Assembly: GCF_044324785.1 (NCBI RefSeq)
Contig: NZ_CP172127.1
DNA from: Escherichia coli
Lineage (GTDB): Bacteria > Pseudomonadota > Gammaproteobacteria > Enterobacterales > Enterobacteriaceae
Direction: 5' to 3' (one strand)
Length of the DNA: 64,000 nt
Shown: one piece after another, positions 6,975-55,889 of the stretch
Layout of the letters: each line of letters opens with the position of its first letter
Numbering within the stretch: position 1 is the first letter of the stretch
Notes under the pieces: generated by a model
The model's input: the letters and a program-made list of their open reading frames with translations, nothing else
The model's database searches: none
What the model was told of the DNA's origin: nothing
Translations under genes and position numbers: made by a program

Positions 6975-8375
6975 TTAATCCATCTCTTCCGCTGAGGTAA
7001 TACCAGGCAGAACGTTTTCCTGTCGGTAGCCACCAGGGAGGATAATATTTAATAAAATCGCAGTTAACCCGCCAGCACAAATAGGGTTTTCAACTAGTAC
7101 ATAAATAGAGGCTGGCAATATTTTAAAAATTTCGGGATCGTAGGAGACGCCAAGCCCTAAACCTAAAGAAGTGGCGACAATAAGTGTTTCTCGGCGCTTT
7201 AAACCGTTGGTGATGATGATGCGAATCCCTGCGATGGCAATCATGGAAAACATCAACGTCATTGCGCCTCCCAGAACTGCCGAGGGAATGGTCGTGAAGA
7301 AGCCGCCAATCATCGGAAACAAACCGAGGATAACCAGCATTACCGCGATGGTTCGCCCGACATAACGTGAAGCGACGCCAGTCATCTGAATAACCCCATT
7401 ATTTTGCGCAAACGTGGTTAAGGGTAATGAACCGACAGCGGAGGCGATAACAGAAACCAGACCATCTGCCAGCACGCCGCCTTTCAGTCGGGACTGATAC
7501 TCTTCCCCCTGAATGGGGCGGCGAGAAACCATTGCCGTGGCGGTGATATCGCCGACAGCTTCCAGCACGCTAAGCAAATAAATCGTGCCAACCACCAGGA
7601 ACTGATGGAAGCTGAAACTAAACCCGTATTTGAACGGATGCGGGATGGTGATTAACGGCAAATTGCGCATACTGCTGAAATCCACCATACCCAGGCATAA
7701 CGACGCGATATAACCGACGCATAGCCCAATGGCGATCCCTCCCATGCGTAGCAACGGACTGCGACAGCAGTTAAAGCCGATCACCACAATCAAAACCAAT
7801 AAACCAACGCCGAGATGTTCGTAATTGCCGAACGTACCGCTGCTTTTGGCTGCAAATCCTCCACCAAAATCGATAATGCCGACTTTAATCAGGCTTAAGC
7901 CGATCATCAGTACCACAATACCGCTGACAGTAGGCGTAATAACCCGACGTAAATAGGGCAGGATAAAAGAAGAGCCGACAACCAGAAATGCGCCAACGAA
8001 GGAGACGCCGAAGAGCGACGACATGATTAACTCTTCGTGAAAACCGTCGCTTTTCATGCTGCTGCCCAGCGCAATCATGACCGTAACAAATGAAAAATTG
8101 ACTGACTGAATTGAGAGAAGACCAGAACCGACGATGCCGTAGCGGTTTACTTGTAACCAGGTACCAATACCAGAGGCGATCATCGCCATAGAAACCAGAT
8201 AAGCGGTTGTTTCAGCGGAAAGCTGTAAGGCCGCACCCACGATTAACGCGGGGGTTACCATCGGAACGAAAATTGCCAACAGATGGGTAATGGCACCAAC
8301 GAGAGCCTGATGAAAGGGAGGGCGATCCTCCAGTTCAAATATAAGGTCAGAACCTGCATGGTTTATATCAGACAT
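6975..8375 (-). CDS. xanQ: Xanthine permease (NCS2 family)
   Basis: ORF 6975..8588 trimmed to MSDINHAGSDLIFELEDRPPF... (466 aa) with AAGGAG RBS; multi-TM permease. Confidence 0.85.
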   Translation of the reverse strand: MSDINHAGSDLIFELEDRPPFHQALVGAITHLLAIFVPMVTPALIVGAALQLSAETTAYLVSMAMIASGIGTWLQVNRYGIVGSGLLSIQSVNFSFVTVMIALGSSMKSDGFHEELIMSSLFGVSFVGAFLVVGSSFILPYLRRVITPTVSGIVVLMIGLSLIKVGIIDFGGGFAAKSSGTFGNYEHLGVGLLVLIVVIGFNCCRSPLLRMGGIAIGLCVGYIASLCLGMVDFSSMRNLPLITIPHPFKYGFSFSFHQFLVVGTIYLLSVLEAVGDITATAMVSRRPIQGEEYQSRLKGGVLADGLVSVIASAVGSLPLTTFAQNNGVIQMTGVASRYVGRTIAVMLVILGLFPMIGGFFTTIPSAVLGGAMTLMFSMIAIAGIRIIITNGLKRRETLIVATSLGLGLGVSYDPEIFKILPASIYVLVENPICAGGLTAILLNIILPGGYRQENVLPGITSAEEMD

Positions 8376-8539
8376 CCCTTCACTCCTTTTAAAGTAAATT
8401 TGATCATCTGAATCAGTAAAATAAATTCCCACGAATTTGGGGCGCAGGACGCCTTGAGAACGGCTTATCTCATTTTCGCAGTCACTATTTAGTCGTCGTT
8501 CAAACAGAGAAACAGGCCGCCGAAGCGGCCATTTATTAT

Positions 8540-33487: not shown

Positions 33488-33561
33488 GCGGGCGTAGTTC
33501 AATGGTAGAACGAGAGCTTCCCAAGCTCTATACGAGGGTTCGATTCCCTTCGCCCGCTCCA
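33488..33561 (+). tRNA. glyU: tRNA-Gly (anticodon CCC)
   Basis: 74-nt sequence GCGGGCGTAGTTCAATGGTAGAAC...TTCGATTCCCTTCGCCCGCTCCA with cloverleaf stems, anticodon loop cTTCCCAAg and encoded 3' CCA. Confidence 0.9.
33544..33561 (+). repeat. attL core (3' end of glyU)
   Basis: Exact 18-bp copy of the sequence at 52689-52706. Confidence 0.75.
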
Positions 33562-33725
33562 AACAAACATTTCTCAACGTCTACTGAAGTCCATCAAATC
33601 CACGAATATCAAGCCTTTCAGCCATTTTCATAGCTTATTAACGTCTACTCACAACTACCAGAATCTACACACAGAAGTGTATAGTAATGCGTATAGGACA
33701 AAATTTATTTTTTGGAGCTATACAC

Positions 33726-34940
33726 ATGCTGCTTTCAGACCTTGCTATCAGGCGCGCGAAGCCGAAAGAAAAGGCTTATACACTCAATGACGGTAACGGG
33801 CTTTCGTTACTCATTGAGCCGAACGGCTCGAAAGGGTGGCGACTACGTTACAGATTTGCAGGAAAGCCCAAAATGTTGTCGTTGGGCGTGTACCCTGATG
33901 TGTCTCTGTCTGATGCCAGAGCGGCAAGGGATGAGGCTAAAAGGCTTCTTGCTGGTGGTATAAATCCAAGTGAGGCCAGAAAAGCTCAAAAGCGAGAACA
34001 GGCGAGCAAATTTGGCAATACTTTTGAGGGTATCGCTCGCGAATGGTATGAAAAGCGGATCGACAGGTGGTCATCGTCATACGCCGAGGAAATGATCGAG
34101 ACGTTTGAAAAAGACGTTTTTCCGTACATTGGCGGCAGGCCGATCGCAGAAATTAAGCCAATGGAGTTGCTTGCGGTTCTCTCCCGTCTTAATGACCGTG
34201 GGGCGACCGAAAAATTGCGTAAGGTTCGCCAGCGATGCGGCGAGGTGTTCCGGTACGCAATCATCACCGGACGCGCTGAATATAACCCCGCACCAGATCT
34301 GGCAAGCGCATTTGCTCCACACAAAAAAGAGCATTATGCCTATTTGAAGGCCGACGAACTGCCGGAATTTTTCCGCGTTCTTAATACGTACACCGGAAGC
34401 CAGATCGTCAAGCTGGGTATGCGATTATTGATTCTGACAGGGCTCCGGCCAGGGGAATTACGACAGGCAGAATGGCAGGAGATCGATTTTGATAATCGTT
34501 TGTGGGAAGTGCCTAAAGAACGAATGAAGATGCGCCGTCCTCATTGTGTGCCGCTTTCAGAACAGGCGATCGCTATTCTGGAACAGTTAAAACACATGAC
34601 GGGGCAGTATCAGTTTATTTTCCCTGGTCGAATCCAGCACAGTAAGCCGATGAGTGAAATGGCGATGAACGTGCTTATTCGTCGTATTGGCTATTCTGGG
34701 CGCGTTACTGGTCATGGGTTCCGGCACACGATGAGCACGATTTTACATGAGCAGGGCTATAACACCGCGTGGATAGAAACGCAGCTTGCACACGTTGATA
34801 AGAACTCAATTCGTGGCACGTACAATCATGCGCAATATCTGGACGGGCGGCGCGAGATGCTCCAGTGGTACGCCGACTATATGGACTCACTGGAACAGGG
34901 CGGCAACGTGGTGCATGGCAAGTTCGGAAAATGTGGATGA
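33726..34940 (+). CDS. int: Tyrosine recombinase, P4-family integrase
   Basis: N-terminus MLLSDLAIRRAKPKEKAYTLNDGNGLSLLIEPNGSKGWRLRYRFAGKPKMLSLGVYPDVSLSDAR is the P4-type integrase arm-binding signature; C-terminal catalytic residues (R..HGFRHT..Y); ATG at 33726 with GGAG RBS preferred over the ORF-track start at 33687. Confidence 0.85.
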   Translation: MLLSDLAIRRAKPKEKAYTLNDGNGLSLLIEPNGSKGWRLRYRFAGKPKMLSLGVYPDVSLSDARAARDEAKRLLAGGINPSEARKAQKREQASKFGNTFEGIAREWYEKRIDRWSSSYAEEMIETFEKDVFPYIGGRPIAEIKPMELLAVLSRLNDRGATEKLRKVRQRCGEVFRYAIITGRAEYNPAPDLASAFAPHKKEHYAYLKADELPEFFRVLNTYTGSQIVKLGMRLLILTGLRPGELRQAEWQEIDFDNRLWEVPKERMKMRRPHCVPLSEQAIAILEQLKHMTGQYQFIFPGRIQHSKPMSEMAMNVLIRRIGYSGRVTGHGFRHTMSTILHEQGYNTAWIETQLAHVDKNSIRGTYNHAQYLDGRREMLQWYADYMDSLEQGGNVVHGKFGKCG

Positions 34941-35062
34941 CTGGTTGAGTATACAGTAGTAGACTTTGAGCGACGAAAGAAAAAGCTGTGTCTAGGGTCG
35001 CTCCCGAAAAACCGTATACCTCGACGGGCTGGCACAGCCACTACAGTAGAGGACGCTGAGGT

Positions 35063-35866
35063 GTGCGTATGATTGATATTCATGCCGAATTAAACGAATA
35101 CAAAAAAGATTTTATTTCTTTACGTGAATTTCTTGAGGTCGTGCTTAAGGTCGCTGGTGATGATTATGATGTTTCAGATCTCATAACTTGGATACTCAGG
35201 AGAATAAGCGGAGAACATATCCGCCTGTACACAGTAAATGAATTTAAGCTGTTGGAATCTTTTTGTAACCCGTATCGGGATGAATTTGATTATGATGTTC
35301 TTTATAGAAATCTGGATGCGGTTCGGAAACATGGTTGTTTACCTGGTGAGAGGGATGAAAATGGTTTTCTGGTGTCCGGTTATTGGGAAGATCCCGAATT
35401 TGAGAACATTGGATTTATAAGGGGTGAAATTTTCGCAATTTTTCCCGATGTCCTTGACGCGTTAACGAAGCTGGAAGGCGCTAACTCTTCTGAAAATGAC
35501 GAGGTACAAGGACGCGATATTGAAAAGAAAGAGTTGCGTACAGAGGATGATTTATTATCCCAAATCGCAATGCTGGAAAGAGAAAACGCAGAGTTAAGGG
35601 CAAGGATAGAGCAGTTAGAGCAAGAGCGCCCGATACACTTATATAAATACTGGGATAAAGACCCATTAGCTAAGGCTATTGAGATTAGAAACAGAGAGTG
35701 GGCCAATTACGATCCAGAAAATGATTTTGCCACCAGGGGAAATCAAGAAGCGATAACCAGGGAGCTTAAGCAGTGGGGGGCAAGTAATGCTCTTGCAACG
35801 CTCATAGAGAGGACTGCCTGCCCTATTAACCGAGACAACAGCCAAAAGAACGCAAAGCCGGATTAA
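35063..35866 (+). CDS. Hypothetical protein (coiled-coil C-terminus), integrase-adjacent
   Basis: 267-aa ORF; acidic, with a heptad-like segment (LLSQIAMLERENAELRARIEQLEQE); no recognisable catalytic motif. Confidence 0.45.
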   Translation: MRMIDIHAELNEYKKDFISLREFLEVVLKVAGDDYDVSDLITWILRRISGEHIRLYTVNEFKLLESFCNPYRDEFDYDVLYRNLDAVRKHGCLPGERDENGFLVSGYWEDPEFENIGFIRGEIFAIFPDVLDALTKLEGANSSENDEVQGRDIEKKELRTEDDLLSQIAMLERENAELRARIEQLEQERPIHLYKYWDKDPLAKAIEIRNREWANYDPENDFATRGNQEAITRELKQWGASNALATLIERTACPINRDNSQKNAKPD

Positions 35867-35881
35867 CGCACCATACCGCAT

Positions 35882-36024
35882 ACCCTGAGGGTGATTTACT
35901 GTTACCCTGAGGGTATTTTTTTATCTTCCCCGTCAATTTTACCATCACCCTTAGGGTAGATTTCCTCCCGATTACCATCACCCTTAGGGTTAATTTCCTT
36001 CCGGTAACCATTAGGCCTGAGGGT
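35882..36024. repeat. Cluster of five near-palindromic 11-bp repeats (ACCCTGAGGGT / ACCCTTAGGGT) upstream of alpA
   Basis: Copies at 35882, 35904, 35947, 35980 and 36016 (the last as CCTGAGGGT); two copies sit inside a 17-bp direct repeat ACCATCACCCTTAGGGT. Confidence 0.5.
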
Positions 36025-36093
36025 ATGAAAATATTCGTTATTTCTGTGCCATGATTACCTCGTCAAATTGAGTAGACGTTATGAGGTAAATAG

Positions 36094-36291
36094 ATGTCAA
36101 ATACGCTTATTCGTTTAACAGAAGTTCAGCGTAGAACTGGATATAGCAAGGCATGGATTTATCGCCTTATGGGGCAAGGTAAATTTCCTGCATCAGTTAA
36201 AATTGGCTCGCGAGCGATTGCTTTCGTTGAAAGTGAAATTGACGAATGGATCAATCAGCGTATTGCCGAATCACGCGGAACGGCTGCCTGA
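36094..36291 (+). CDS. alpA: AlpA-family phage regulatory protein (excisionase/transcriptional regulator-like HTH)
   Basis: 65 aa; MSNTLIRLTEVQRRTGYSKAWIYRLMGQGKFPASVKIGSRAIAFVESEIDEWI matches the AlpA/Vis-type HTH pattern; RBS present. Confidence 0.8.
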   Translation: MSNTLIRLTEVQRRTGYSKAWIYRLMGQGKFPASVKIGSRAIAFVESEIDEWINQRIAESRGTAA

Positions 36292-36366
36292 TTAAATAGC
36301 TACGGGTTATTGCCCAAGCTATCCACTAGCAAATAAAAAGTAACTTAATTCGATAGCGGAGTTTTT

Positions 36367-37191
36367 ATGAAACTGCGAAAAACGCCCGTACAGGGGCAGG
36401 GCTTTGTTCGGCCTGAAAACCAGAATCTGCAAAATTTCGGCGAAATTATCCCGGTTATTTCCGGCGTTATTGGCGGGCGTGAAGCCGCTGTTGTTAGCGC
36501 AAAAGCGTTACACAAAGCGTTGGGCGTGGGAAAAGACTTCTCTACATGGATCACTGATCGTATCTCTGAATATGACTTCACCATTGGGTACGATTACTCA
36601 GTCCATAAAACAATTTCCCCAAATTTGGGGAAAAGCCCGAATGGCGAGGCTTACAGCAAGATTAAGCACTCTGGCAGACCCGGTAAAGACTATCTGTTAA
36701 GTGTCGGAATGGCGAAAGAACTGGCAATGATCGAACGCACCGAACAGGGCCGCGCCGTTCGTCAGTACTTCATCAAATGCGAGGAGGAGCTACACAAAGT
36801 AGCGCCAGTGCGTTCCGCAGCGTTACGCCGTGAACTGAAAGCCCGTATCACCGTTGCCAGCTACTTTAAGCCGATGTGTGCCGCGCTGGAGGCGTACCGC
36901 GCTGAACTGGGTAAAAACACGCTCCAGCACCACTACACCACGGAAGCCAATATGCTGGCGCGTATCGTGCTGGGTGGCATGACTGCAAAACAGTGGGCGC
37001 AGGCGAACGGCATCACAGGCGAACCACGCGACCACATGAGCACGCTGCAGCTTGAGCACCTTTCTTACCTTGAGCAGAGCAATATCACGCTGATTGAGTT
37101 AGGCCAGGACTACCACCAGCGGAAAGCTGAATTAATTCGTCTTTCGCAACGCTGGTTAGCCCGCCGCATGGAGGTGAGCAGCCATGCGTAA
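36367..37191 (+). CDS. Phage antirepressor-like regulatory protein
   Basis: 274 aa; N-terminal segment (VVSAKALHKALGVGKDFSTWITDRI) resembles AntA/Rha-type phage regulatory domains. Confidence 0.5.
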   Translation: MKLRKTPVQGQGFVRPENQNLQNFGEIIPVISGVIGGREAAVVSAKALHKALGVGKDFSTWITDRISEYDFTIGYDYSVHKTISPNLGKSPNGEAYSKIKHSGRPGKDYLLSVGMAKELAMIERTEQGRAVRQYFIKCEEELHKVAPVRSAALRRELKARITVASYFKPMCAALEAYRAELGKNTLQHHYTTEANMLARIVLGGMTAKQWAQANGITGEPRDHMSTLQLEHLSYLEQSNITLIELGQDYHQRKAELIRLSQRWLARRMEVSSHA

Positions 37192-37741
37192 ACCTGTCTT
37201 TTATGCCGGGCGCACTGAAATCTCTGTCATTAAATTCGATGACATTCAGGTGCGCATAGTGAGTATCAACGGCGAGCCGTGGTTTGTTGGCGCTGATGTG
37301 TGTGCTGCGCTGGAAATCAGCAATGTTACTGATGCTGTTTCAGTTCTGGATAACGACGAGGTAATGACCCTAGCTTTAACCGAGGGGCATTCCGGTAAGC
37401 GTGGTGGTGCCAGAAGCTGGAATGTTGTCTCTGAATCAGGTTTCTACAAACTGATCGCCCGCAGCCGTAAAGCTTCCACACCTGGCACATTTGCGCACCG
37501 TTTCAGTAACTGGGTATTCCGCGAGGTTATTCCTTCAATCCGCAAAACGGGGAGTTATGGTGTTCCGTTTGCCATGCTGAATGATTTCAGTAAACGCCAG
37601 GCTGCATATCAACAGGAAGCCAGCAAACGCGGTTACAGGTTACAGCAATGCAAAGAGGCAAAAGATGCACTGGAACGAGAAGAGCGGGCGCTATGGCGTA
37701 AATATCAGCCTGATTTTCTGGAGGGTGAAAGCAATGTGTAA
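37184..37741 (+). CDS. Bro-N domain protein (phage antirepressor family)
   Basis: 185 aa; GEPWFVGADVCAALEISNV...VLDNDE...ESGFYKLIARSRK...FSNWVFREVIPSIRKTGSYG is the Bro-N signature. Confidence 0.7.
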   Translation: MRKPVFYAGRTEISVIKFDDIQVRIVSINGEPWFVGADVCAALEISNVTDAVSVLDNDEVMTLALTEGHSGKRGGARSWNVVSESGFYKLIARSRKASTPGTFAHRFSNWVFREVIPSIRKTGSYGVPFAMLNDFSKRQAAYQQEASKRGYRLQQCKEAKDALEREERALWRKYQPDFLEGESNV

Positions 37742-37909
37742 CGATCCGAACGTTACAGAAAGAAAAAGCGCCCCGTTGCTGGATAACAGGCAAAACAAAG
37801 GCGACCGGGATAGGTCGCCAGTGGGAACAAAGGAAATCAAACGCATCGCCAACAATGCCAGATTTGCGGCTGGTGGGCAATGTGATCAGTGTGCTGGCTT
37901 GCTGGTGGG

Positions 37910-38107
37910 CTATTCCTGCTCTTTAGCATCGCCATACTGCGATGTTTTCCAGGTATGCGATCCCATTTTTGTGCGCCTGTACTCTTTTAAGAACTTCTCA
38001 AGGACAAACGCACATGGCGCAAATCTTTCCTGTTCTTGTTCGCTTACCGCATTTTTGCGTTGTTTTTTCCTGGATGAGGATAATTTCTTTAATGATTTGT
38101 CAGTCAT
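37910..38107 (-). CDS. Small hypothetical protein (paralogue of 38165..38362)
   Basis: 65-aa minus-strand ORF in a region where the overlapping plus-strand ORF looks non-coding; shares the C-terminal KEQE ending and a basic/acidic pattern with its neighbour. Confidence 0.3.
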   Translation of the reverse strand: MTDKSLKKLSSSRKKQRKNAVSEQEQERFAPCAFVLEKFLKEYRRTKMGSHTWKTSQYGDAKEQE

Positions 38108-38164
38108 CGTAGATACCTGTAACCCTGTGCGCCACAGTTCACCGCACCACGGCGCTGGTGATGG

Positions 38165-38362
38165 TTACTCCTGCTCTTTGGCCTTCCGGCGCTGTTCATA
38201 TTTTAATTTGCGTCCACAGGCATCTAAGACCCATGCGGAAAAATTAGCACTAGGATTAGTTAATTTTTCTTGTTCAACACTGGCATCAATCCCATCTATA
38301 AGCTCGTGCGGGAATCGAATATTTTTCTTTGCTGATTTGTTGTTTGTGTTTCCGCTAGACAT
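38165..38362 (-). CDS. Small hypothetical protein, candidate regulator divergent from the replication operon
   Basis: 65-aa minus-strand ORF whose 5' end abuts the operator-like palindromes at 38391-38469. Confidence 0.3.
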   Translation of the reverse strand: MSSGNTNNKSAKKNIRFPHELIDGIDASVEQEKLTNPSANFSAWVLDACGRKLKYEQRRKAKEQE

Positions 38363-38390
38363 TGGTACACCTCACTTAAATGGATTTGAT

Positions 38391-38469
38391 GGGCGCACAC
38401 AATACAGCAAAAAAAGTGAGAAGTTAAGTATTGACATGTGCGCACACATGATTTTAATCTGTGCGCACA
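38391..38469 (+). promoter_or_regulatory. Sigma70-like promoter overlapped by three GTGCGCAC palindromic operator-like sites
   Basis: -35 TTGACA (38431-38436), 16-bp spacer, -10 TTTAAT (38453-38458); palindrome GCGCACA at 38393-38399, TGTGCGCACACA within the spacer (38437-38448) and GTGCGCACA at 38461-38469. Confidence 0.45.
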
Positions 38470-38567
38470 GTTTGGGTTGCATTGCTCAAATTAAGCAACG
38501 CCCCGCAGTGCTCGCAACACATGCAGGGCGTCTAACCACCAACGATAGAAAGCGTATCGAGGTAGCT

Positions 38568-38771
38568 ATGTTAAATCATACCACACACCCGCAAGGGCGG
38601 GACTCGCACAACCTGAATAAATACATCTGGCGTTTTATCGCCCTGAGCACCGCACAACCACGCGTAATACACATCGAGGCCGCCAGCGAACAGGAAGCCC
38701 GTCAGCAATCCCCGGCTGGCTGCGTGATGGTATTTACTGCCCGCATCCGTCAGGGGGAATACTATGCGTGA
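38568..38771 (+). CDS. Small hypothetical protein (first ORF downstream of the operator-controlled promoter)
   Basis: 67 codons (MLNHTTHPQGRDSHNLNKYIWRF...) with GAGG RBS; corresponds to the only plausible coding part of ORF-track entry 37581..38771. Confidence 0.3.
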   Translation: MLNHTTHPQGRDSHNLNKYIWRFIALSTAQPRVIHIEAASEQEARQQSPAGCVMVFTARIRQGEYYA

Positions 38772-39021
38772 TGAACGATTTATTCTTCTGGAGCAAAAAT
38801 TCAGTGAAGCGCCAAAAAATGAAATTGATGCTCTTTTGCATATCGCGAATATGCTAAAAGTAGCAACGTTCCTTATAGTTTCGAATCTGGAGCATGAAAC
38901 GGCGTTAGATATACTGAACAGTGCTGTCGATTATTCTGAATATATTGCCGAGGATAAATACAGGCAATTACCAGATTTGTTAGCCCATAAATATAAAGAA
39001 GAACCTCACACCGGGAAATAA
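38764..39021 (+). CDS. Hypothetical protein
   Basis: 85-aa ORF in the same orientation and tightly packed with the replication gene. Confidence 0.4.
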   Translation: MRDERFILLEQKFSEAPKNEIDALLHIANMLKVATFLIVSNLEHETALDILNSAVDYSEYIAEDKYRQLPDLLAHKYKEEPHTGK

Positions 39022-39023
39022 AC

Positions 39024-39326
39024 ATGAAGAAGATTAAATTTACTGGCTTAAATGCCAGCGGACAGACTCACCCGAAAATCAGGATCGGGGATATTTTCCG
39101 GGATAAATATGGTGACAGCGTGGTTATTAATTCCGTGTATGAACGGCACATTACATACCGCCGCGCAGGGTACGACTATGACTGTGTGATGCCCGTTCAT
39201 CAGTTCCGGCGTGATTTTTCACTGGTATGTGCAGTACCACGCAGTAAGCCCACCAGTAAAGAGAAAGCACGGGCAAATATTCAGGTAATAAAGAACATGA
39301 TTAACGCATTCAGGGGCAAGAAATGA
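39024..39326 (+). CDS. Hypothetical protein
   Basis: 100-aa ORF; stop overlaps the start of the 708-aa replication gene (ATGA). Confidence 0.4.
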   Translation: MKKIKFTGLNASGQTHPKIRIGDIFRDKYGDSVVINSVYERHITYRRAGYDYDCVMPVHQFRRDFSLVCAVPRSKPTSKEKARANIQVIKNMINAFRGKK

Positions 39327-48273: not shown

Positions 48274-51029
48274 TGAAACAGGCATGTGTTGAAGCTATTG
48301 CGCAGACACTTGGTCGCCAGCCAAAGGCTGATGAGCTGAAAAATATCGAAGATCGTATCAAAGAAGCAGTGCAACATGTGCACAGAAAGAATGCAAAAGA
48401 AGGCAAAAGTGGTATTCCTGATGCTCAAACATACATGGATGCTGCAGAACTGGTACGCCAGCGTGTGGTTCATGATGTGTACAAGAAAAGACAGCGTGTT
48501 GCCCAGAATGCGATCGCCATCAGTAAAATTACTGACACTCTCGATGCTAACATCCCGCCTGATCAGCAGACACCTGTTAATTTGCAGCAGTTTATTTTTG
48601 CTGGCCGACGATCGAGAGACAAAGCTGATATCTCCGTTGCTTCTGCTGAAGAGCTTGCAATTGGGGCATATCAGGACTGGTCCCGTCAGCTCAGTGCTGA
48701 ACTTCTAAAAGCAGGTGATGACGTCCGCAAATTCTTCGAGCAGAGCAGGGCGCTTGGAGAGCAGCGGTTTCGGAGTGTATTCGACAGGCAGGCGGCAAAG
48801 TCTGCACAACTCCAGATCCTGAAAGAAATATATGGCGAAGATACCGGGAATCCCCTGGCGAAGAAAATTGCACAGATTTGGAAGGATGTAACAGGCCGTG
48901 TTCGTCATGAGATGAACGACAATGGCTTTGACATAGGCCTGCGAGAAGACTGGCATACGCCATATGTGGATGATGCTGACCTTATTCGCAATGCCGGGCG
49001 CGAAGAATGGCTGGCATCGTTACCAGTGGCAGAGCAAGCTACAGCACGTCTTTCAGGTCGCCAGCCACCGATTGAGTTTGCCCGCCAGAAATGGGTTGAT
49101 GACGCTTACAACACGCAGGATCGCAGCAATTACGTTAATCCTGACGGCAGCATTATGAATGACGTCGAGTACCGTCAGGCACTGGAAGCGATCTTTGAAA
49201 CGAAGGCCACTGATGGGGCAAACAAAATTGAGCCTGGTACATTTATGGGAGCCGGAGGAATAAAGAGCCGTGGTTCTCAGCACAGGGTGATGGCGTTCAA
49301 GGATGCGCAGTCACACTTCGCCTATATGGAACGATACACTCAGCAGCCGCTGGTGGGGGTGATGATGTCGCACCTGCAATCATCATCCAGGGATTTGGGC
49401 GTCGTTAAAGCCTTTGGTCCGGACGCCGAAAGAAACTTTTCCCTGGTACTGGATCGCATCTATAAGCGCGCAGTAACAGGCGGGAAACGCAAAAAAGAAA
49501 TGGAGGATGAGGCCAAATTAGTTGCCCGTATGTTCAACTCAATGGCTGGCCTAAATGGTGTCGCTTCATCGAGTGTGTTCTCTTCAGCAGTTGGTGGTCT
49601 GCGTAACCTGATGACCAGCGCCATGCTTGGCACCAGCGTACTGACAGCAACCAGCGACCAGGCAATTATGCGGGCAAATGCGCAGGCGCTGGGCTTTACC
49701 CGTGGTGGAATGCGGCTTTCCGTTAACACTATCAAAAACCTGTTTAGTGGAGATGCCAAAAAGGCGAATGCTGAACTCGGTCTGCTGGTGGATTCACATG
49801 CTGCTGTGGTTTCGAAAATGGGCGGGTTTGACTTGTCTCGCGGCATAACTGGCTGGTTCGCAGAGAAGACACTGAAGTGGTCCGGGCTGATCGCTATGGA
49901 CCGCGCAAACAAAGCGTCGTTTGGTCTCCTGATGTACAAAAACATTGGCGAGCTGACCAGAAAATTTAAGACGCTGGACGATATGAAAGGAACCGATAAA
50001 ACCATTCTGGCTAACAAGGGATGGAGCAATGAGGACTGGGCCATCATGGCAGCGGCAGAACTCAGGCCGATGACTACTGCCGGGCATATGGGGATGACGC
50101 CAGACGCGATTTACGCTGTGCCCGATAACGTAATAGCCGACATTATGGCAGACCGTATTACCCGGATTCGTGCCGGGAGTGAAAAGGCACTGGCAGCCCT
50201 TGGAGATCTCCCTCCAGAACGCCTGAAACGGATGAAAGAAGCATTCGACGCTGAGGCTGAGCAGACCATCACGCGCATGATTCGTAATGCACGCGCTGAA
50301 GCAGCCCAGAAATTGCTGGGAATTACGCACGGTGAGATGACCAATGCTGTGACCACCGCTACGGGTATTGATACATATGCCCGTGATGATGCTGGCGAGT
50401 TAATGAAGAGCTTCATGCTCTTCAAAACAACCCCATTTGCTGGATTTCGGCAACTTGTTAACAGAACACGGGATTTGGACACCGTTCCGGCCATTAAATT
50501 TCTGGCCTCATATATCGGGGGAACAACTCTTGCTGGTATGTTTGCGATCCAGATGAACAGTTTGTTAAATGGTAATGATCCGCTGGATATGACAAAACCA
50601 ACCACATGGGTTCAGGCTTTACTGAAAGGTGGTTCGTTCGGTATCTACGGTGATTTTATTTTCCAGGACCATACGCAATATGGCTCCAGAATCGGTGCCA
50701 CTATGGGTGGCCCTGTGTTGAGCTTTGCAGAGCAGTTAACAAAATTACTGATTACTAACCCACAGAAGGCTCTACAGGGTGAAGAAACATCATTCGGTGC
50801 CGATGCACTGAAAACAGCCCGCATGATCACCCCATTCGCAAACCTGTGGTATGCGAAAGCGATAACCAATCACCTGATATTGCAACAACTTCAGGAGATG
50901 GCAAACCCTGGTTACAATGATCGAGTAAGGGACCGCGCGCAACGGGAGTTCGACATAACGAGTTGGTGGGAACCGGGTGCTATTGCGCCACGTAGAGCAC
51001 CGGATTTTGGAAAGGCGGTGGGGAACTGA
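48273..51029 (+). CDS. Large hypothetical protein (918 aa), cargo operon gene 3
   Basis: ATG at 48273 overlaps the upstream stop (TAATG) with a GAGGA RBS; the ORF-track start at 48252 is a GTG in the same frame; no recognisable catalytic motif. Confidence 0.6.
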   Translation: MKQACVEAIAQTLGRQPKADELKNIEDRIKEAVQHVHRKNAKEGKSGIPDAQTYMDAAELVRQRVVHDVYKKRQRVAQNAIAISKITDTLDANIPPDQQTPVNLQQFIFAGRRSRDKADISVASAEELAIGAYQDWSRQLSAELLKAGDDVRKFFEQSRALGEQRFRSVFDRQAAKSAQLQILKEIYGEDTGNPLAKKIAQIWKDVTGRVRHEMNDNGFDIGLREDWHTPYVDDADLIRNAGREEWLASLPVAEQATARLSGRQPPIEFARQKWVDDAYNTQDRSNYVNPDGSIMNDVEYRQALEAIFETKATDGANKIEPGTFMGAGGIKSRGSQHRVMAFKDAQSHFAYMERYTQQPLVGVMMSHLQSSSRDLGVVKAFGPDAERNFSLVLDRIYKRAVTGGKRKKEMEDEAKLVARMFNSMAGLNGVASSSVFSSAVGGLRNLMTSAMLGTSVLTATSDQAIMRANAQALGFTRGGMRLSVNTIKNLFSGDAKKANAELGLLVDSHAAVVSKMGGFDLSRGITGWFAEKTLKWSGLIAMDRANKASFGLLMYKNIGELTRKFKTLDDMKGTDKTILANKGWSNEDWAIMAAAELRPMTTAGHMGMTPDAIYAVPDNVIADIMADRITRIRAGSEKALAALGDLPPERLKRMKEAFDAEAEQTITRMIRNARAEAAQKLLGITHGEMTNAVTTATGIDTYARDDAGELMKSFMLFKTTPFAGFRQLVNRTRDLDTVPAIKFLASYIGGTTLAGMFAIQMNSLLNGNDPLDMTKPTTWVQALLKGGSFGIYGDFIFQDHTQYGSRIGATMGGPVLSFAEQLTKLLITNPQKALQGEETSFGADALKTARMITPFANLWYAKAITNHLILQQLQEMANPGYNDRVRDRAQREFDITSWWEPGAIAPRRAPDFGKAVGN

Positions 51030-51343
51030 TGACGAGAGATAAAATTGAATATATTGCTTCTCTTAAATATGAAGCTGAGAAATGGAGAAGGATTGGCGGG
51101 TGGGGAACATTAATATCACTCTCTGCTTTACTTATAGACTCCTGGTTCAGACATATTGATGCAGCATCATTACTTTTTGAATCAGCAGTACTTGGTGGAT
51201 TCATTTGCTGTTGGGGTGGTAATTATGATCGGGCGTCCAAACATAAGAGAGAACTTGACGCGATATGTTTTGCTTTATTCGGTAAGGATTACGAAAGTTC
51301 TGACCTTGATATAATTGAATTCAACAAAACGGAACTATCGTGA
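51029..51343 (+). CDS. Small protein with one hydrophobic segment (104 aa), cargo operon gene 4
   Basis: TGATG coupling to gene 3; predicted membrane-spanning stretch (LISLSALLIDSWF...VLGGFICCWGG); followed by a terminator. Confidence 0.45.
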   Translation: MTRDKIEYIASLKYEAEKWRRIGGWGTLISLSALLIDSWFRHIDAASLLFESAVLGGFICCWGGNYDRASKHKRELDAICFALFGKDYESSDLDIIEFNKTELS

Positions 51344-51351
51344 CATGTCAC

Positions 51352-51376
51352 AGGCCGCTTTCGCGGCCTTGTTTTT
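51352..51376 (+). terminator. Rho-independent terminator of the cargo operon
   Basis: Stem aggccgc / gcggcct with loop tttc, followed by TGTTTTT; 9 nt after the stop of the 104-aa gene. Confidence 0.6.
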
Positions 51377-52045
51377 AACGAATGCCACCGCCGCCCGGGC
51401 GGGAATTCGCAGATAAAAAAGCACGCTGCACGGTTTTATTAATACTTATACCATTAGGATTGATCCTTCAATGGACAATCCTTCCATCGTGTGGCCAGCC
51501 ATTCATATTCTTTGTCTTTTCTTCAGTATCGGCTTTGCATCTTCTACACCCTGAAAGATGTCGTTTTATGGTGTATCTGATGATTTATTCCCTAACAATA
51601 GATATTCGAAAAATTAATCAGTTAAAACAATTATTTGGATAATTTCAGGTAAAACTATCTTAATCTTCTGGTGGATCTCAATGCGTAGTGACGGTATCGG
51701 GATTAAGGGCGTGGATATTCGCGATATATGCCGCTACACCCCTCAACAGTAATAGATATGAGCTTTTCACGCTCTCCTTTCACTGCTGAGAACGGCAACA
51801 ACGTGCCACAGGAACGCGCTGTAATCGATTCTGACGCACTTAATTGCGTTGGGTAATGGTTTTTGCCAGCCTGTGGGGGTAACTCTGTTTTATGAGGCTT
51901 TGGCTATAGTGCAAAAATACACTTTGTCTTGCCTCTCAATTTGATGAGACTGGAACGACAACAGGACAGACCACCAGCAACAGTTACCGTATTCAGCCGT
52001 TCTGTGGCACCAGTGGAACTATCAACCCCTGCTTTCAGCAATGTG

Positions 52046-52203
52046 TTTGCGGGTTATTTTGGGGCGTTTGCGGGTTATTTGGGATGTTTTGCGGGTTATG
52101 TGATGCTTGAATAATGAACAGTGTATTTTGCAACATATTGATACTAAAGAACAAAAAATAGTTAGCATACTAAGATAACCCGGTAACCCGCATAACCCGC
52201 ACT
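52046..52203. repeat. Iteron cluster B: three inverted and three direct copies of the same (A/G)TAACCCGC motif
   Basis: TTTGCGGGTTAT at 52046, 52067 and 52088; ATAACCCGG at 52175, GTAACCCGCA at 52183, ATAACCCGCAC at 52193; same motif as cluster A, ~10.5 kb away, just inside attR. Confidence 0.55.
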
Positions 52204-52688
52204 GTTTTGTATATATATACGAAAAATTGCATTCAGGAGGGGGGGAGCGAAATCCCTACAATCCATTGCTTATGGGACCGCCCGCCTCGTCAAATTTTTA
52301 CACCCGCGAAATAAAAAAATACTTCACGCTGGTGGGCATGATGCTGATATGGGAGGCTTCCATAACGCCACCATTCGGAACTATGCAAATCTGCATAGAA
52401 AAGGGGATGCCTGATACAATACCCTCGCCCGATAAAATCACACCGATAAACTCATCTGCCACGAGTAGAAAGAGCGAACGAACCCGATACGCAGTAATGC
52501 TTGTCGGGTACAGCTTTTTAAGGCGGCTGTAGATATCAGGCCATCCGTGATCATCCACCAGCGAGATAGCCGATAACGATGACGCATAACCCTCAAGCGA
52601 GGGATAAATGTGTATAGAAATGTGTATAGAATTGATTTTAGAACTCGCAGGATTCGCGCTATTACTGGCCTTGTGTGATGTTGTATTG

Positions 52689-52706
52689 TTCCCTTCGCCC
52701 GCTCCA
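52689..52706 (+). repeat. attR core (duplicated glyU 3' end)
   Basis: Exact 18-bp copy of the glyU 3' end, 19.1 kb downstream of the tRNA. Confidence 0.75.
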
Positions 52707-52938
52707 ATTTATCTTCACCTCATCAACCTGTCATTTTTGTTGTATCTGATTTTCTATATTATCTTAATTCAATCGCTTCAGACTTTTCGCAATCGCCGAA
52801 ATACTTCCCCATTTTTTTGTAAATAAAAGCGTTTACGCAATGCAATCCATTTGTAACAACCCAGGTAAAATACCTTATTTTCAAGTTGTTAAATAAGTGG
52901 TTATCTACGCTTTTAACAAACGATTGATGGAATCTTTT

Positions 52939-54549
52939 ATGAAAGGGAAATCTACATTAACTCTTCTGCTCGCTGGTATATTTTCATGCGGCACATGCCA
53001 GGCGACAGGGGCAGAAGTGACGAGTGAATCTGTATTTAACATTCTTAATTCCACGAGGGCAGTAACAGATAAAAGTTATTTATCGTTAAATCCAGATAAG
53101 TATCCTAATTATCGTCTTCTGATTCACTCAGCCAAATTACAAAATGAAATAAAGAGCCACTATACCAAAGACGAAATTCAAGGATTGTTTACATTAACAG
53201 AAAACACACGAAAGTTAGCGTTGACGGAGAAACCCTGGGGAACGTTTATTCTTGCTTCTACTTTCGAAGATGACAAAACAGCGGCAGAAACCCACTATGA
53301 TGCTGTCTGGCTGAGGGATAGTTTATGGGGCTATATGGCATTAGTATCAGATCAGGAAAATAGGGTAGCTGCAAAAAAGATTCTGCTCACCCTGTGGGAT
53401 TATATGTCTACGCCCGACCAGATTAAGCGGATGCAGGATGTCATTAGCAACCCAAAACGACTGGATGGAATTCCCGGGCAAATGAATGCTGTGCATATCC
53501 GATTTGACAGCAACTCCCCCGTGATGGCAGATGTGCAGGAAGAAGGCAAGCCGCAGCTGTGGAACCATAAACAAAATGATGCTTTAGGTCTTTATCTTGA
53601 TCTCCTTATACAAGCAATCGACACTGGTACTATTAACGCTGAAGACTGGGAAAAAGGTGACCGATTAAAATCGATTGCGCTGTTGGTTGCTTATCTGGAT
53701 AAAGCCAATTTCTATGTTATGGAAGATTCTGGAGCGTGGGAAGAAGATGCCCGATTAAACACATCTTCAGTTGCACTGGTGACCTCTGGACTGGAACGTT
53801 TGTCAAACCTACTCTCGAAGAAAGACTCTGTTTTTGTCTCTGATTTACTACGCGAAGCTAAAGCCAATGAACTGGATGAACCTCTTTCAACAACGAGGTT
53901 GAACCATCTCATAGATAAAGGGTATGAAAGAATAACGCTACAGCTTGATTTAGGGGGAGAATCCCCTGGTTATCTGGAAAAAGATAAACATTACAGAGAA
54001 GCTGATGCGGCCTTACTTAATGTTATTTATCCTGCAAATCTTTCAAAGATAAACACCAGAAGAAAAGAGCAAGTTCTAAAAATAGTTAAAAAACTAGCAG
54101 GTCCGTATGGTATAAAAAGATACGAGAAGGATAATTATCAGTCGGCAAATTTTTGGTTCAATGATATTAAAACTGATACCGATCAAAATTCACATGCGAA
54201 AAGAGAAAAGAGCTTCATTCCATCAACAGAAGCAGAATGGTTTTTTGACTCATGGTATGCAAAATCAGCAGCAATTGTTTATAAAGAATCAAGAAAAGAA
54301 GAATATTTGAATGACTCAGTGCAATTTATGAATAGATCATTGGCCCAAATAACAGGCGAGAATATGATTGGTGCAAATGGCAGGAGCGTACCTGAAATGG
54401 CACTTCCCGAAAGCTATAACTATATCCACAAGTCAGGAACTTTGCATGAAGCGCCAAGCCCTATCATTCCGCTAAACTGGTCGAAAGCCTCAATGACTCT
54501 TATGTTGAAAGAAATGTCCAACCTTATCAATGATGAGGGAAATAAATAG
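52939..54549 (+). CDS. Secreted (possibly lipo-) protein with glucoamylase-like (GH15-type) motifs
   Basis: Signal peptide MKGKSTLTLLLAGIFSCGTCQA; glucoamylase-type motifs WLRDS (W-x-R-D) and GAWEE (general-acid region); AT-rich like the neighbouring T3SS genes; the ORF-track start at 52897 is an alternative. Confidence 0.55.
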   Translation: MKGKSTLTLLLAGIFSCGTCQATGAEVTSESVFNILNSTRAVTDKSYLSLNPDKYPNYRLLIHSAKLQNEIKSHYTKDEIQGLFTLTENTRKLALTEKPWGTFILASTFEDDKTAAETHYDAVWLRDSLWGYMALVSDQENRVAAKKILLTLWDYMSTPDQIKRMQDVISNPKRLDGIPGQMNAVHIRFDSNSPVMADVQEEGKPQLWNHKQNDALGLYLDLLIQAIDTGTINAEDWEKGDRLKSIALLVAYLDKANFYVMEDSGAWEEDARLNTSSVALVTSGLERLSNLLSKKDSVFVSDLLREAKANELDEPLSTTRLNHLIDKGYERITLQLDLGGESPGYLEKDKHYREADAALLNVIYPANLSKINTRRKEQVLKIVKKLAGPYGIKRYEKDNYQSANFWFNDIKTDTDQNSHAKREKSFIPSTEAEWFFDSWYAKSAAIVYKESRKEEYLNDSVQFMNRSLAQITGENMIGANGRSVPEMALPESYNYIHKSGTLHEAPSPIIPLNWSKASMTLMLKEMSNLINDEGNK

Positions 54550-54614: not shown

Positions 54615-54794
54615 GTGATCAATAAATTACTGTTAGCTTACCTGATAGGTCTGGTTGTGACATCGACCTTAATATTTATCTTCTCGGAAGAAAAAGTAAC
54701 ATATCGGTTGTTTGCTGCAGTAATTACAGGGTTGACCTGGCCGCTTAGCCTCATTCCATCCATCATAAGTCTCATGATTCGTAAATCCGACTAA
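54615..54794 (+). CDS. Small membrane protein (two predicted TM segments)
   Basis: GTG start at 54615 preceded by strong RBS GGGAGGT; hydrophobic segments LLLAYLIGLVVTSTLIFIF and LFAAVITGLTWPLSLIPSIISL. Confidence 0.35.
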   Translation: MINKLLLAYLIGLVVTSTLIFIFSEEKVTYRLFAAVITGLTWPLSLIPSIISLMIRKSD

Positions 54795-55139: not shown

Positions 55140-55889
55140 ATGATTGAAGAAGGGCTGTTACTTCCAATGAATGTTTTGCTTCAAGGACAGAAGTTAACCC
55201 TACTGGATCCTGAAATGTGGTTCTTACGGGGAAATGAAAACAAGGATGTAACCCTTGTTATTACGATTGGTAATAACCATCAAAAATTAATGGTAGTGGA
55301 AGACATATTACTGCTCATTGACCGAAGCCAAATTGAGGTAACTGCAGGGAAAGTAATTTATCATCCACTTCGCATTGATATCCTGAGTAAATTATTAGCT
55401 TTTATAGATGAATCAACGGGGAGTGTGGAAAGGGAACACCATGAGTTGTTTGCTGATGCCTTGCCCTTTGCATCAGAAGTTGTGCTATTCAGTAAAGTTG
55501 CAAGTGAAGCCTGGTTTTTAGCCACTTATCTGAGCAGCGATAATATTAATGAAATTCTGTTTCAGCATCTAAGAAAAACAGAATGCTATAAACTGGTTCG
55601 CTATTTATTATCGCAATCGCTCATACAGACTTCACTCTATGATCTTGGTGAGCTTTACGGCGTATCGTATTCACATTTTCGCCGTTTATGTAGTTATGCA
55701 TTGGGTGGTAAAGTTAAAACGGAATTATGTGGCTGGAGAGTTGCCAGAGCCGTGTTGGAAATCATTGAAGGAAACAGTGATATGACAACAATTGCGCATA
55801 AATATGGCTACTCATCCTCATCACACTTTTCAGCCGAAGTAAAAAGCCGGTTAGGAAAAACACCGAGAGAACTATGTAAAAAGTTATGA
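55140..55889 (+). CDS. eivF: AraC-family T3SS transcriptional activator (InvF homologue)
   Basis: 249 aa; C-terminal AraC-type HTH (SYSHFRRLC...IAHKYGYSSSSHFSAEVKSRLGKTP); first gene of an inv-like operon; AT-rich. Confidence 0.8.
   Translation: MIEEGLLLPMNVLLQGQKLTLLDPEMWFLRGNENKDVTLVITIGNNHQKLMVVEDILLLIDRSQIEVTAGKVIYHPLRIDILSKLLAFIDESTGSVEREHHELFADALPFASEVVLFSKVASEAWFLATYLSSDNINEILFQHLRKTECYKLVRYLLSQSLIQTSLYDLGELYGVSYSHFRRLCSYALGGKVKTELCGWRVARAVLEIIEGNSDMTTIAHKYGYSSSSHFSAEVKSRLGKTPRELCKKL

Follow-up and report, generated by a model that had tools for sequence, protein, structure and literature searches.

The window analysed here is a stretch of 64,000 nucleotides of Escherichia coli DNA (NZ_CP172127.1), in which the gene of interest and its surroundings comprise the following features:

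52689–52706, plus strand: attR, a duplicated 3′ end of the tRNA-Gly gene glyU; right boundary of an integrated element of about 19 kb and the true left neighbor of pkgA
52897–52938, plus strand: in-frame upstream extension from a GTG codon, the source of a 550-aa reading; without Shine–Dalgarno sequence, the signal peptide fitting the ATG at 52939 only
52939–54549, plus strand: pkgA/ygeQ, intact and coding for a GH15-like (alpha/alpha)6 glycoside hydrolase of 536 aa; RefSeq name "glycoside hydrolase family 15 protein"
54615–54794, plus strand: 59-aa OrtT/GhoT-family small membrane protein (ECs3735-type, PF10753), with a GTG start after an AGGGAGG Shine–Dalgarno sequence
55140–55889, plus strand: eivF, which opens the ETT2 eiv operon and encodes an AraC regulator resembling InvF (listed for context)

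The open reading frame at 52939–54549 is an intact allele of pkgA (ygeQ), an already known ETT2 gene. It shared 96%–99% DNA identity with the gene listed in RefSeq as "glycoside hydrolase family 15 protein" or ygeQ at glyU beside eivF, and the PGAP label of its product is also GH15 protein. Elsewhere the gene is named EC042_3075 (EAEC 042), ECs3736 plus ECs3737 (O157 Sakai, split), and b2863 (K-12, a truncated remnant). Neither the gene nor the idea of a glucoamylase-like ETT2 accessory is a discovery, as both were published before under the name pkgA. In two papers citing Pallen 2003 (PMC2808357, PMC3977695), the gene is called glucoamylase-like and, tentatively, a "potential ETT2 effector"; the product has been likened to both glucoamylase and phosphorylase kinase. 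No functional study turned up in a literature search under ygeQ or ECs3736, and pkgA is an ETT2 component that is known and annotated but has received little experimental attention.

The earlier note had described a protein of 550 aa. The reading frame itself is real, but this length is reached only from the GTG at 52897, whereas the ATG at 52939 yields 536 aa. The GTG start was disfavored because it lacks a Shine–Dalgarno sequence and because the signal peptide would be buried, and the extension at 52897–52938 is probably not translated. Both starts occur in RefSeq depending on the strain, with the ATG version in strain RM10425. Since homologues were found across several phyla and the dN/dS values were low (0.08 in the comparison with E. 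albertii, 0.13 in that with another E. coli allele), pkgA is a real gene under purifying selection and not a chance open reading frame. A promoter and terminator scan around pkgA returned nothing above chance.

The gene lies between attR and eivF, as the earlier note had placed it, and the open reading frame for the 59-aa OrtT/GhoT-family protein, which went unmentioned there, sits between pkgA and eivF. The 18-bp tRNA-Gly 3′ end TTCCCTTCGCCCGCTCCA was found at 33544–33561, inside glyU, and again at 52689–52706 as attR, with a chance expectation of 0. The known E. coli locus has the same order of glyU, pkgA, small ORF, and eivF as the window; what differs here is the intact allele and the 19-kb integrated element separating pkgA from glyU. 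With a GC content of 0.402, against 0.385 for the downstream type III secretion genes and 0.507 for window positions 1–33000, pkgA is indeed AT-rich like the secretion genes, and the canonical inv/spa set does not include it, both as previously proposed.

The AlphaFold model of PkgA was an (alpha/alpha)6 barrel with a pLDDT of 90.6 and a pTM of 0.91, and the closest solved structures were isomaltose glucohydrolase and the D1 domains of phosphorylase kinase (PhK) alpha and beta. Pfam PF00723 matched the protein weakly (E = 9.2e-6, 25.3 bits, model positions 14–309 of 427 only), and the NCBIfam scan gave nothing meaningful. When a profile of the family alignment was searched against the PDB, PhK alpha and beta were the sole matches; classical GH15 enzymes were reached by profile only via a sister sub-family. 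Classical glucoamylases are more distant from PkgA than PhK D1 is, in both sequence and structure, and PkgA belongs to a GH15 sub-family that includes the N-terminal D1 domain of eukaryotic PhK alpha and beta. Identity with isomaltose glucohydrolase (5Z3A), glucoamylases (3EQA, 1LF6), glucodextranase, and dextran dextrinase was 12%–16%, and PkgA, unlike these enzymes, has an extra N-terminal alpha/beta region of about 85 residues and insertions at 407–431 and 470–490.

The relationship with PhK also has its differences. While the PhK alpha/beta D1 domain (PDB 8JFK) is the first domain of a cytosolic kinase subunit of 1,100–1,200 aa, PkgA is free-standing, 536 aa long, bacterial, and exported. 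The D1 domain of PhK alpha has an intact active site with both catalytic glutamates, yet is inactive on maltose, isomaltose, and glycogen, and PhK beta is without some of the catalytic residues (PMC10978961). Since PhK alpha D1, the nearest solved relative, is inactive on these three substrates, the label "glucoamylase" should not be assumed for PkgA.

The W-x-R-D and G-x-W-E-E motifs reported earlier were both found in PkgA, and the active-site segments were assigned as follows, by alignment except for the last:

53308–53319, plus strand: W124-L-R126-D127, corresponding to W52-T-R54-D55 of Aspergillus niger glucoamylase, subsite −1 binding; R126 invariant
53560–53580, plus strand: W208-N-H-K-Q212-N-D214, corresponding to glucoamylase W120...Q124-R-D126; H210 is common to PhK alpha
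53731–53745, plus strand: G265-A-W267-E268-E269; E268 is the predicted general acid, corresponding to glucoamylase E179 and PhK alpha Glu185
54118–54156, plus strand: R394-Y-E-K-D-N-Y400...W406, corresponding to glucoamylase R305...Y311...W317
54406–54420, plus strand: P490-E491-S-Y-N494; E491 is the predicted general base, from topology and invariance, with no significant alignment

Conservation was assessed in 38 PkgA homologues with 38%–76% identity. W267-E268-E269 was invariant in all of them and aligned with W178-E179-E180 of A. niger glucoamylase and with the W-E motif of PhK alpha, whose glutamate is, in our reading, the catalytic Glu185 of PMC10978961. The subsite −1 residues R126/D127, W208, R394, and Y400, aligned to R54/D55, W120, R305, and Y311, were invariant or nearly so. 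Comparisons by hhalign with A. niger glucoamylase, a fungal glucoamylase profile, and trimmed C-terminal profiles aligned the N-terminal half consistently, and one register set Q470 opposite the glucoamylase base E400 with a low probability of 38%. No match was obtained when C-terminal fragments or profiles of PkgA were searched against the PDB using phmmer and hmmsearch. Q470 was not accepted as the equivalent of the base because this register is of low probability and at odds with the helix topology of the model. E431 was a further candidate for the base and was dropped because the barrel has three helices after this residue and not one.

Judging from the model and the conservation pattern, E491 is the probable general base. 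No other acid is invariant in the final loop between helices, which is where the base lies in GH15 enzymes, and E491 is invariant in the sister sub-family too. With the acid invariant and the base unaligned by sequence, the evidence leans toward conservation of the catalytic glutamates, and PkgA looks catalytically competent. PkgA might instead be a non-catalytic carbohydrate-binding or regulatory protein with a retained GH15 pocket, as PhK alpha D1 appears to be, which we consider improbable. The register with the invariant Gln470 opposite the catalytic base would favor such a protein, but it is the one that clashes with the model. An invariant acid, a base candidate, and a sugar-binding set kept across phyla under purifying selection are more typical of an enzyme, and the PhK assays covered three substrates only.

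Among 5426 complete E. coli genomes, pkgA was present in 3985, always at one and the same locus, and it was missing where ETT2 was missing. The gene belongs to the island and is not a widely distributed core gene independent of it, the case that had been named as refuting the earlier proposal. At least 80% of its length was kept in 2968 of the 5426 genomes. O157 Sakai has a split copy, K-12 a truncated one, and several strains an IS-interrupted one; since many E. coli strains carry split or truncated copies, the gene is dispensable. In a tblastn search of plasmids with a close PkgA homologue, every match was an E. coli chromosome wrongly filed as a plasmid.

Homologues with at least 49% identity had ETT2/SPI-1-type neighbors in every metagenomic contig examined with enough flank (n = 7 loci with recognizable neighbors of this type). 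Those with 49%–65% identity in L010, L049, L051, L046, L048, and L007 adjoin island genes, which across the six loci were prgHIJK-orgA, hilA/ygeH-like, iagB-like, etrB-like, invH-like, or eivF- and ygeG-like genes, and in the Yersinia locus L003 a gene of the type III secretion tip-complex family lies about 10 kb from the homologue. The homologues have diverged to the same extent as the island proteins EprK (56%), IagB (52%–57%), and EtrB (50%–54%). Genes for effector-like proteins, namely SopD/pentapeptide and DXD glycosyltransferase proteins, sometimes lie beside the homologues in ETT2-like islands.

The OrtT-like open reading frame adjoins pkgA in eight divergent loci, directly downstream in seven of them and upstream in L046, and the two are a conserved gene pair. 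Pfam PF10753 matched residues 4–46 of the product encoded at 54615–54794 (E = 1.5e-11), in agreement with its RefSeq name. With its 59 aa and two hydrophobic segments, this protein belongs to the same PF10753 family as the toxins OrtT (YdcX) and GhoT; it is, however, the fixed neighbor of an exported glycosidase-like gene, whereas OrtT and GhoT are encoded at orphan or type V toxin loci. In all related metagenomic loci examined, pkgA and the OrtT-like gene travel with ETT2-like islands, which suggests a real link, although co-inheritance by itself is no proof of shared function.

The wider PkgA family is rare, occurs in several phyla, and is mostly unlinked to type III secretion. For the members in Gram-positives, Mollicutes, and Bdellovibrionales, no secretion system genes were found within 10 kb, and outside the island-linked clade no family member lay near type III secretion genes. 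The neighbors of the distant members (Commensalibacter, Bifidobacterium, Bdellovibrionales, Planctomycetota, Saccharibacteria, Clostridiales, and others) were mostly unrelated housekeeping genes, with one sugar symporter and one GH32 gene among them, and gave no usable clue to the substrate.

On these distributions, pkgA could be a passenger gene carried at the edge of the island, without a present role in E. coli, whether a decaying remnant or the gene of a sugar-scavenging enzyme that has nothing to do with the secretion system. The split, truncated, and interrupted alleles fit this explanation, as do the housekeeping, symporter, and GH32 neighbors of the family elsewhere. Nevertheless, the allele in the window is intact and its dN/dS low, and both the ETT2-type linkage and the OrtT-like partner persist in at least six other loci despite rearrangement and 35%–51% protein divergence. 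We therefore regard a mere passenger as rather unlikely, and an accessory gene of the island as the better description.

The signal peptide claimed previously was borne out by a Sec-type leader at the N-terminus of PkgA:

52939–53004, plus strand: Sec-type signal peptide, residues 1–22, from pattern match and hydropathy; lipobox I-F-S-C with Cys17 at 52987–52989

The N-terminus MKGKSTLTLLLAGIFSC17GTCQA22 begins with two lysines followed by a 10-residue stretch with a mean Kyte–Doolittle hydropathy of 2.25, and residues 1–23 had a pLDDT below 50 in the AlphaFold model. After this charged hydrophobic leader, the classical lipobox pattern [LVI][ASTVI][GAS]C was matched at Cys17, and an alternative signal peptidase I site follows C-Q-A22. 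The E. albertii homologue has V-L-A-C, which failed the strict lipobox pattern, and the remaining island-linked homologues aligned have signal peptidase I sites of the Ala-X-Ala type, the lipobox cysteine being unconserved outside Escherichia. A hydrophobic N-terminal export signal was present in every island-linked homologue aligned, and PkgA looks to be exported via the ordinary Sec route.

Type III substrates generally exit from the cytoplasm without such hydrophobic Sec signals. The conserved export signals therefore argue against an injected effector, and the published effector idea fits poorly with the Sec signal peptide and lipobox of the window copy. That PkgA is injected by ETT2 into the host, where it would attack or mimic the regulation of glycogen metabolism, is the least probable of the explanations considered, even with the gene at the end of the ETT2 cluster, the wording "potential effector" in both papers, the homology with the glycogen-regulating PhK alpha/beta D1 of the host, and the recurrence of homologues in ETT2-like islands, at times by effector-like genes, because no chaperone gene is paired with pkgA, its conserved partner is a small membrane protein, and relatives occur in Gram-positives, Mollicutes, and Bdellovibrionales with no secretion genes found within 10 kb. 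Because the name effector is at odds with the conserved signal, whether Sec or lipoprotein, the place of pkgA in ETT2 biology has probably been mis-stated.

Taken as a whole, the data are best explained, with moderate confidence, by a Sec-exported GH15-family glycoside hydrolase that is an accessory of ETT2-type islands and not an injected effector. Its likeliest role would be that of an envelope or extracellular alpha-glucoside hydrolase. The (alpha/alpha)6 barrel would be exported by Sec, probably lipid-anchored in Escherichia, and its most likely site of action would be the periplasm, the outer membrane, or the extracellular space. There it could cleave an alpha-glucosidic bond by inverting exo-hydrolysis, E268 serving as the putative general acid and E491 as the putative general base, while R126/D127, W208, W267, R394, and Y400 would hold the non-reducing glucose. 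The gene would be an old, co-inherited accessory of ETT2-type (SPI-1-family) islands and would form a two-gene module with that of the small OrtT/GhoT-like membrane protein, PkgA not being injected.

A bolder version is that PkgA and its OrtT-like partner constitute a Sec-exported envelope module tied to ETT2-type injectisomes and that PkgA is an active and tractable bacterial prototype of PhK alpha/beta D1, which we put forward as a speculative proposal only. If true, the module would provide injectisomes with a glycosidase accessory, for which no type III system offers a known example, and the substrate of PkgA could reveal what PhK alpha/beta D1 binds or cleaves. The PhK D1 domain has an intact active site and no known substrate; thus, a soluble bacterial homologue, as this free-standing relative of the glucoamylase-like domain of PhK alpha/beta is, offers an easy route to that question. 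Exported envelope proteins are also encoded elsewhere in the same islands: homologues of the IagB-type lytic transglycosylase and of the lipoprotein pilotin InvH adjoin pkgA homologues in L010, L049, L051, and L046, and resemble PkgA by analogy only, their fold and chemistry being unrelated.

The pkgA (ygeQ) ORF was read from the ATG at 52939, since the protein then opens with a typical export signal (MKGKSTLTLLLAGIFSCGTCQA) and RefSeq chose this start too in strain RM10425. The earlier note had given 52939-54549 and 550 aa; the coordinates stand, while that length belongs to the in-frame GTG upstream. The W-x-R-D and G-x-W-E-E motifs that it had named were both located, and its attR is the second copy of the 18-bp tRNA-Gly 3′ end.

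33544-33561 and 52689-52706: two copies of the 18-bp tRNA-Gly 3′ end, the first within glyU; none expected by chance
52897, + strand: upstream in-frame GTG of the pkgA ORF, which would give 550 aa
52939 (ATG) to 54549, + strand: pkgA ORF, 536 aa
53308-53319, + strand: W124-L-R126-D127 motif of PkgA
53731-53745, + strand: G265-A-W267-E268-E269 motif of PkgA
54615-54794, + strand: OrtT-like ORF, 59 aa, GTG start, AGGGAGG ribosome-binding site upstream; matches Pfam Toxin_GhoT_OrtT (E 1.5e-11)
55140: start of eivF

The GC content of pkgA (0.402) resembled that of the downstream secretion genes (0.385), as had been claimed, against 0.507 in the first 33 kb of the window. The duplicated tRNA end indicated a 19-kb integrated element between glyU and pkgA. 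This element (33562-52706, in glyU, with the 18-bp direct repeat on both sides) encodes a tyrosine integrase (33687-34940), a DUF927/primase protein (39323-41449) and three very large proteins (843, 686, and 925 aa) matching phage virion/internal head protein families; the same element occupies the identical site in E. coli strain fS10a. The eivJ/SpaN-type ORF (62542-63417) is a single 291-aa frame in the window and is broken into a pseudogene and a fragment in the otherwise near-identical fS10a. It is possible that the window's ETT2 copy is among the intact forms.

pkgA has been described before. Using megablast, the ORF was found in 3,985 of 5,426 complete E. coli genomes, with all matches chromosomal and at one locus; at least 80% of its length was covered in 2,968 of these genomes, and identity was typically 97% and at best 99.2%. 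The usual gene order was actS, tRNA-Gly, the GH15 gene, the GhoT/OrtT-family ORF, eivF, and sctC onward. RefSeq names the product "glycoside hydrolase family 15 protein" and labels frameshifted, truncated or IS-hit copies "ygeQ" plus a hypothetical protein. A review of ETT2 (PMC3977695) has the entry "ECs3736/pkgA ... Phosphorylase kinase and glucoamylase" along with ECs3737, lists b2863 and b2862 as their homologues, and describes pkgA as "speculated to be a ETT2 effector", crediting Pallen 2003. Our literature search found no experimental study of pkgA/ygeQ. Since the gene was already listed in the literature and annotated in RefSeq, the earlier note had made a correct rediscovery, with its observation confirmed and its interpretation upheld only in part.

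PkgA matched Pfam PF00723 weakly (E 9.2e-6, 25 bits, model positions 14-309 of 427), and an NCBIfam scan gave no match. The AlphaFold model, built with 38 homologues as input, was confident (pLDDT 90.6, pTM 0.91), with residues 1-23 disordered. Against the PDB, the single sequence matched only the beta (E 1.4e-3) and alpha (0.049) subunits of phosphorylase kinase (PhK), and the family profile only PhK alpha (4e-7) and PhK beta (1e-4). A sister sub-family of about 440 aa bridges the PkgA group and classical GH15, its profile matching PhK alpha (2.7e-18) and isomaltose glucohydrolase (2.5e-11). Part of the interest of pkgA lies in offering a simple bacterial model of the enigmatic glucoamylase-like D1 domain of PhK.

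Conservation was scored over 38 homologues with 38-76% identity. Invariant or nearly so were R126, D127, W208, H210, Q212, N213, D214, G265, W267, E268, E269, R353, D356, R394, Y395, D398, Y400, W406, E431, W434-W439, Q470, T472, P490, E491, S492, N494, and P511-W514. The family was aligned by hhalign with the A. niger glucoamylase sequence (identical to PDB 3EQA, residues 1-442) and a fungal glucoamylase profile. At low probabilities and in a consistent register, R126/D127 corresponded to glucoamylase R54/D55, W208, Q212 and D214 to W120, Q124 and D126, W267-E268-E269 to W178-E179-E180, and R394, Y400 and W406 to R305, Y311 and W317. In the alignment to PhK alpha, E268 faced the Glu of the W-E motif, which we take to be Glu185, the residue named catalytic in the PhK structure paper (PMC10978961). 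On these alignments, PkgA retains the general acid together with the sugar-binding residues.

The general base is probably E491, judging from topology and invariance. In the model, E491 lies in the loop joining the last two barrel helices. A hairpin and then P-L-N-W514-S-K-A come after it, much as a hairpin and then D-L-T-W417-S-Y-A come after E400-Q-Y-D in glucoamylase. E491 does not vary across the PkgA family or among 20 aligned sister sub-family sequences; more distant relatives have Gln (P0229) or Gly (P0251) here. These features favored E491 over Q470, which one hhalign run with trimmed profiles placed opposite E400 at 38% probability. The Q470 register was not adopted, as it sets the last barrel helix of glucoamylase on a predicted beta-hairpin and leaves the last helix of the PkgA model (513-534) without a partner. 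The relative P0251 (1360 aa) has a PkgA/PhK-D1-like domain at about 2-405 and then a much longer C-terminal extension with a zinc-metallopeptidase-like H-E-x-x-H motif; its Gly at the predicted-base position lies in C-P-G-S-Y-Y.

The most likely reading of PkgA is an exported enzyme of the GH15 type, predicted to take off non-reducing alpha-linked glucose with inversion, with E268 probably acting as the acid and E491 as the base. A rival explanation is that PkgA is a non-catalytic sugar-binding protein. The D1 domain of PhK alpha has an intact site, yet is inactive on maltose, isomaltose, and glycogen (PMC10978961), which cautions against assuming classical glucoamylase specificity for the PkgA sub-family.

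Another rival is that PkgA is a functionless passenger. The dN/dS values of 0.08 versus E. albertii and 0.13 versus another E. coli allele indicated that intact copies are under purifying selection. Split or truncated copies occur in many E. coli strains, including O157 Sakai, K-12, and strains with IS insertions, and about one fifth of the sampled full-length rows also carried a broken pkgA. This decay follows the general attrition of ETT2.

The predicted enzyme would have its site of action in the periplasm, at the outer membrane or extracellularly. The N-terminus bears out the proposed signal peptide, with two Lys followed by a 10-residue stretch of mean hydropathy 2.25; Cys17 fits the classical lipobox pattern, and a C-Q-A signal peptidase I site is also present. 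The Cys is retained at the aligned position in E. albertii (V-L-A-C), the remaining close homologues have Ala-X-Ala-type signal peptides, and Bdellovibrionales and Oligoflexia members have lipoboxes; Gram-positive members lack a signal altogether. Type III substrates are not known to have hydrophobic Sec/lipobox signals of this kind. Therefore, Sec appears the likely export route, and the third rival, the published idea that PkgA is an injected type III effector, is weakened; this conflict between label and signal deserves attention.

The PkgA family is rare: among 1.84 billion representative proteins, a profile search picked up 844 (E≤1e-3), of which 209 reached E≤1e-30. In a scan of 100,044 species, each represented by a single genome, 35 loci turned up, from Commensalibacter, Ureaplasma MAGs, Bdellovibrionales and Oligoflexia, and termite-gut MAGs of Elusimicrobiota, Planctomycetota, Synergistaceae, Clostridiales XIII, Mycoplasmataceae, and Saccharibacteria. 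None of these 35 loci had type III secretion genes within 10 kb; the neighbors were unrelated housekeeping genes, one sugar symporter, and one GH32 gene. The closer homologues, in E. albertii, Yersinia enterocolitica and various metagenomic contigs (L-numbers stand for contigs), were arranged as follows.

PkgA identity and surroundings of closer homologues
E. albertii, 76-77%: arrangement as in E. coli
L010, 65%: pkgA abuts prgH-prgI-prgJ-prgK-orgA; nearby ygeH/hilA-like regulator, iagB-like transglycosylase, etrB-like LuxR regulator, invH-like gene; also SopD/pentapeptide protein and parAB
Yersinia enterocolitica, 60-61%: tip-complex-family gene (type III secretion, PF06511) about 10 kb off, past an sbm-type operon
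L051, 58-61% by alignment: hilA-like, iagB-like, etrB-like (54%), pkgA, OrtT-like ORF
L046, 58%: InvH and OrtT-like ORF
L048, 55%: EivF homologue (45%) and YgeG-like chaperone
L007, 54%: hilA-like gene at 7 kb
L049, 49%: pkgA, OrtT-like ORF, invH-like, hilA-like, iagB-like, LuxR, orgBA-prgKJIH; adjoins TraI relaxase

At 49-65%, the identity of PkgA is in line with the values for the island proteins EprK (56-57%), IagB (52-57%), EtrB (50-54%), and EprI (70-72%). At seven loci (E. coli, E. albertii, L047, L048, L049, L050, and L051), the OrtT-like ORF comes immediately after pkgA on the same strand; in L046 it is upstream. Besides 54615-54794 in the window, its positions are L009 9687-9866, L049 5502-5669, L046 3144-3317, L047 ~9602-9724, L048 ~8286-8411, L050 ~8493-8606, and L051 ~6148-6249. 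We read pkgA and the small ORF as a putative old two-gene module co-inherited with ETT2-type islands, a gene-order argument for linkage, not for shared function. The conserved module is a further point of interest, and a "toxin"-family peptide is a constant neighbor of an exported glycosidase gene across divergent ETT2-like islands.

Other genes recur near pkgA homologues. A 416-aa protein with a DXD glycosyltransferase domain (PF04488), a domain of several toxin/effector glycosyltransferases, is found at L007 14298-15548, L047 160-1410, and L050 1330-2580, and pentapeptide-repeat and SopD-like proteins at L047 4678-5316 and L010 14046-15185; all of these are possible effector genes. The ETT2-like clusters of L010 (DRR526056_6432) and L049 (ERR13910451_1945) lie beside ParA and SopB-type partition genes or a TraI relaxase, which suggests a mobile, plasmid- or ICE-borne ETT2 relative. 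In the Yersinia enterocolitica contigs (L003 5748-9440, also L004 and L005), two proteins of 848 aa and 326-332 aa, neither with a Pfam match, are always encoded ahead of the pkgA homologue on the other strand, and an invasin-like gene is nearby.
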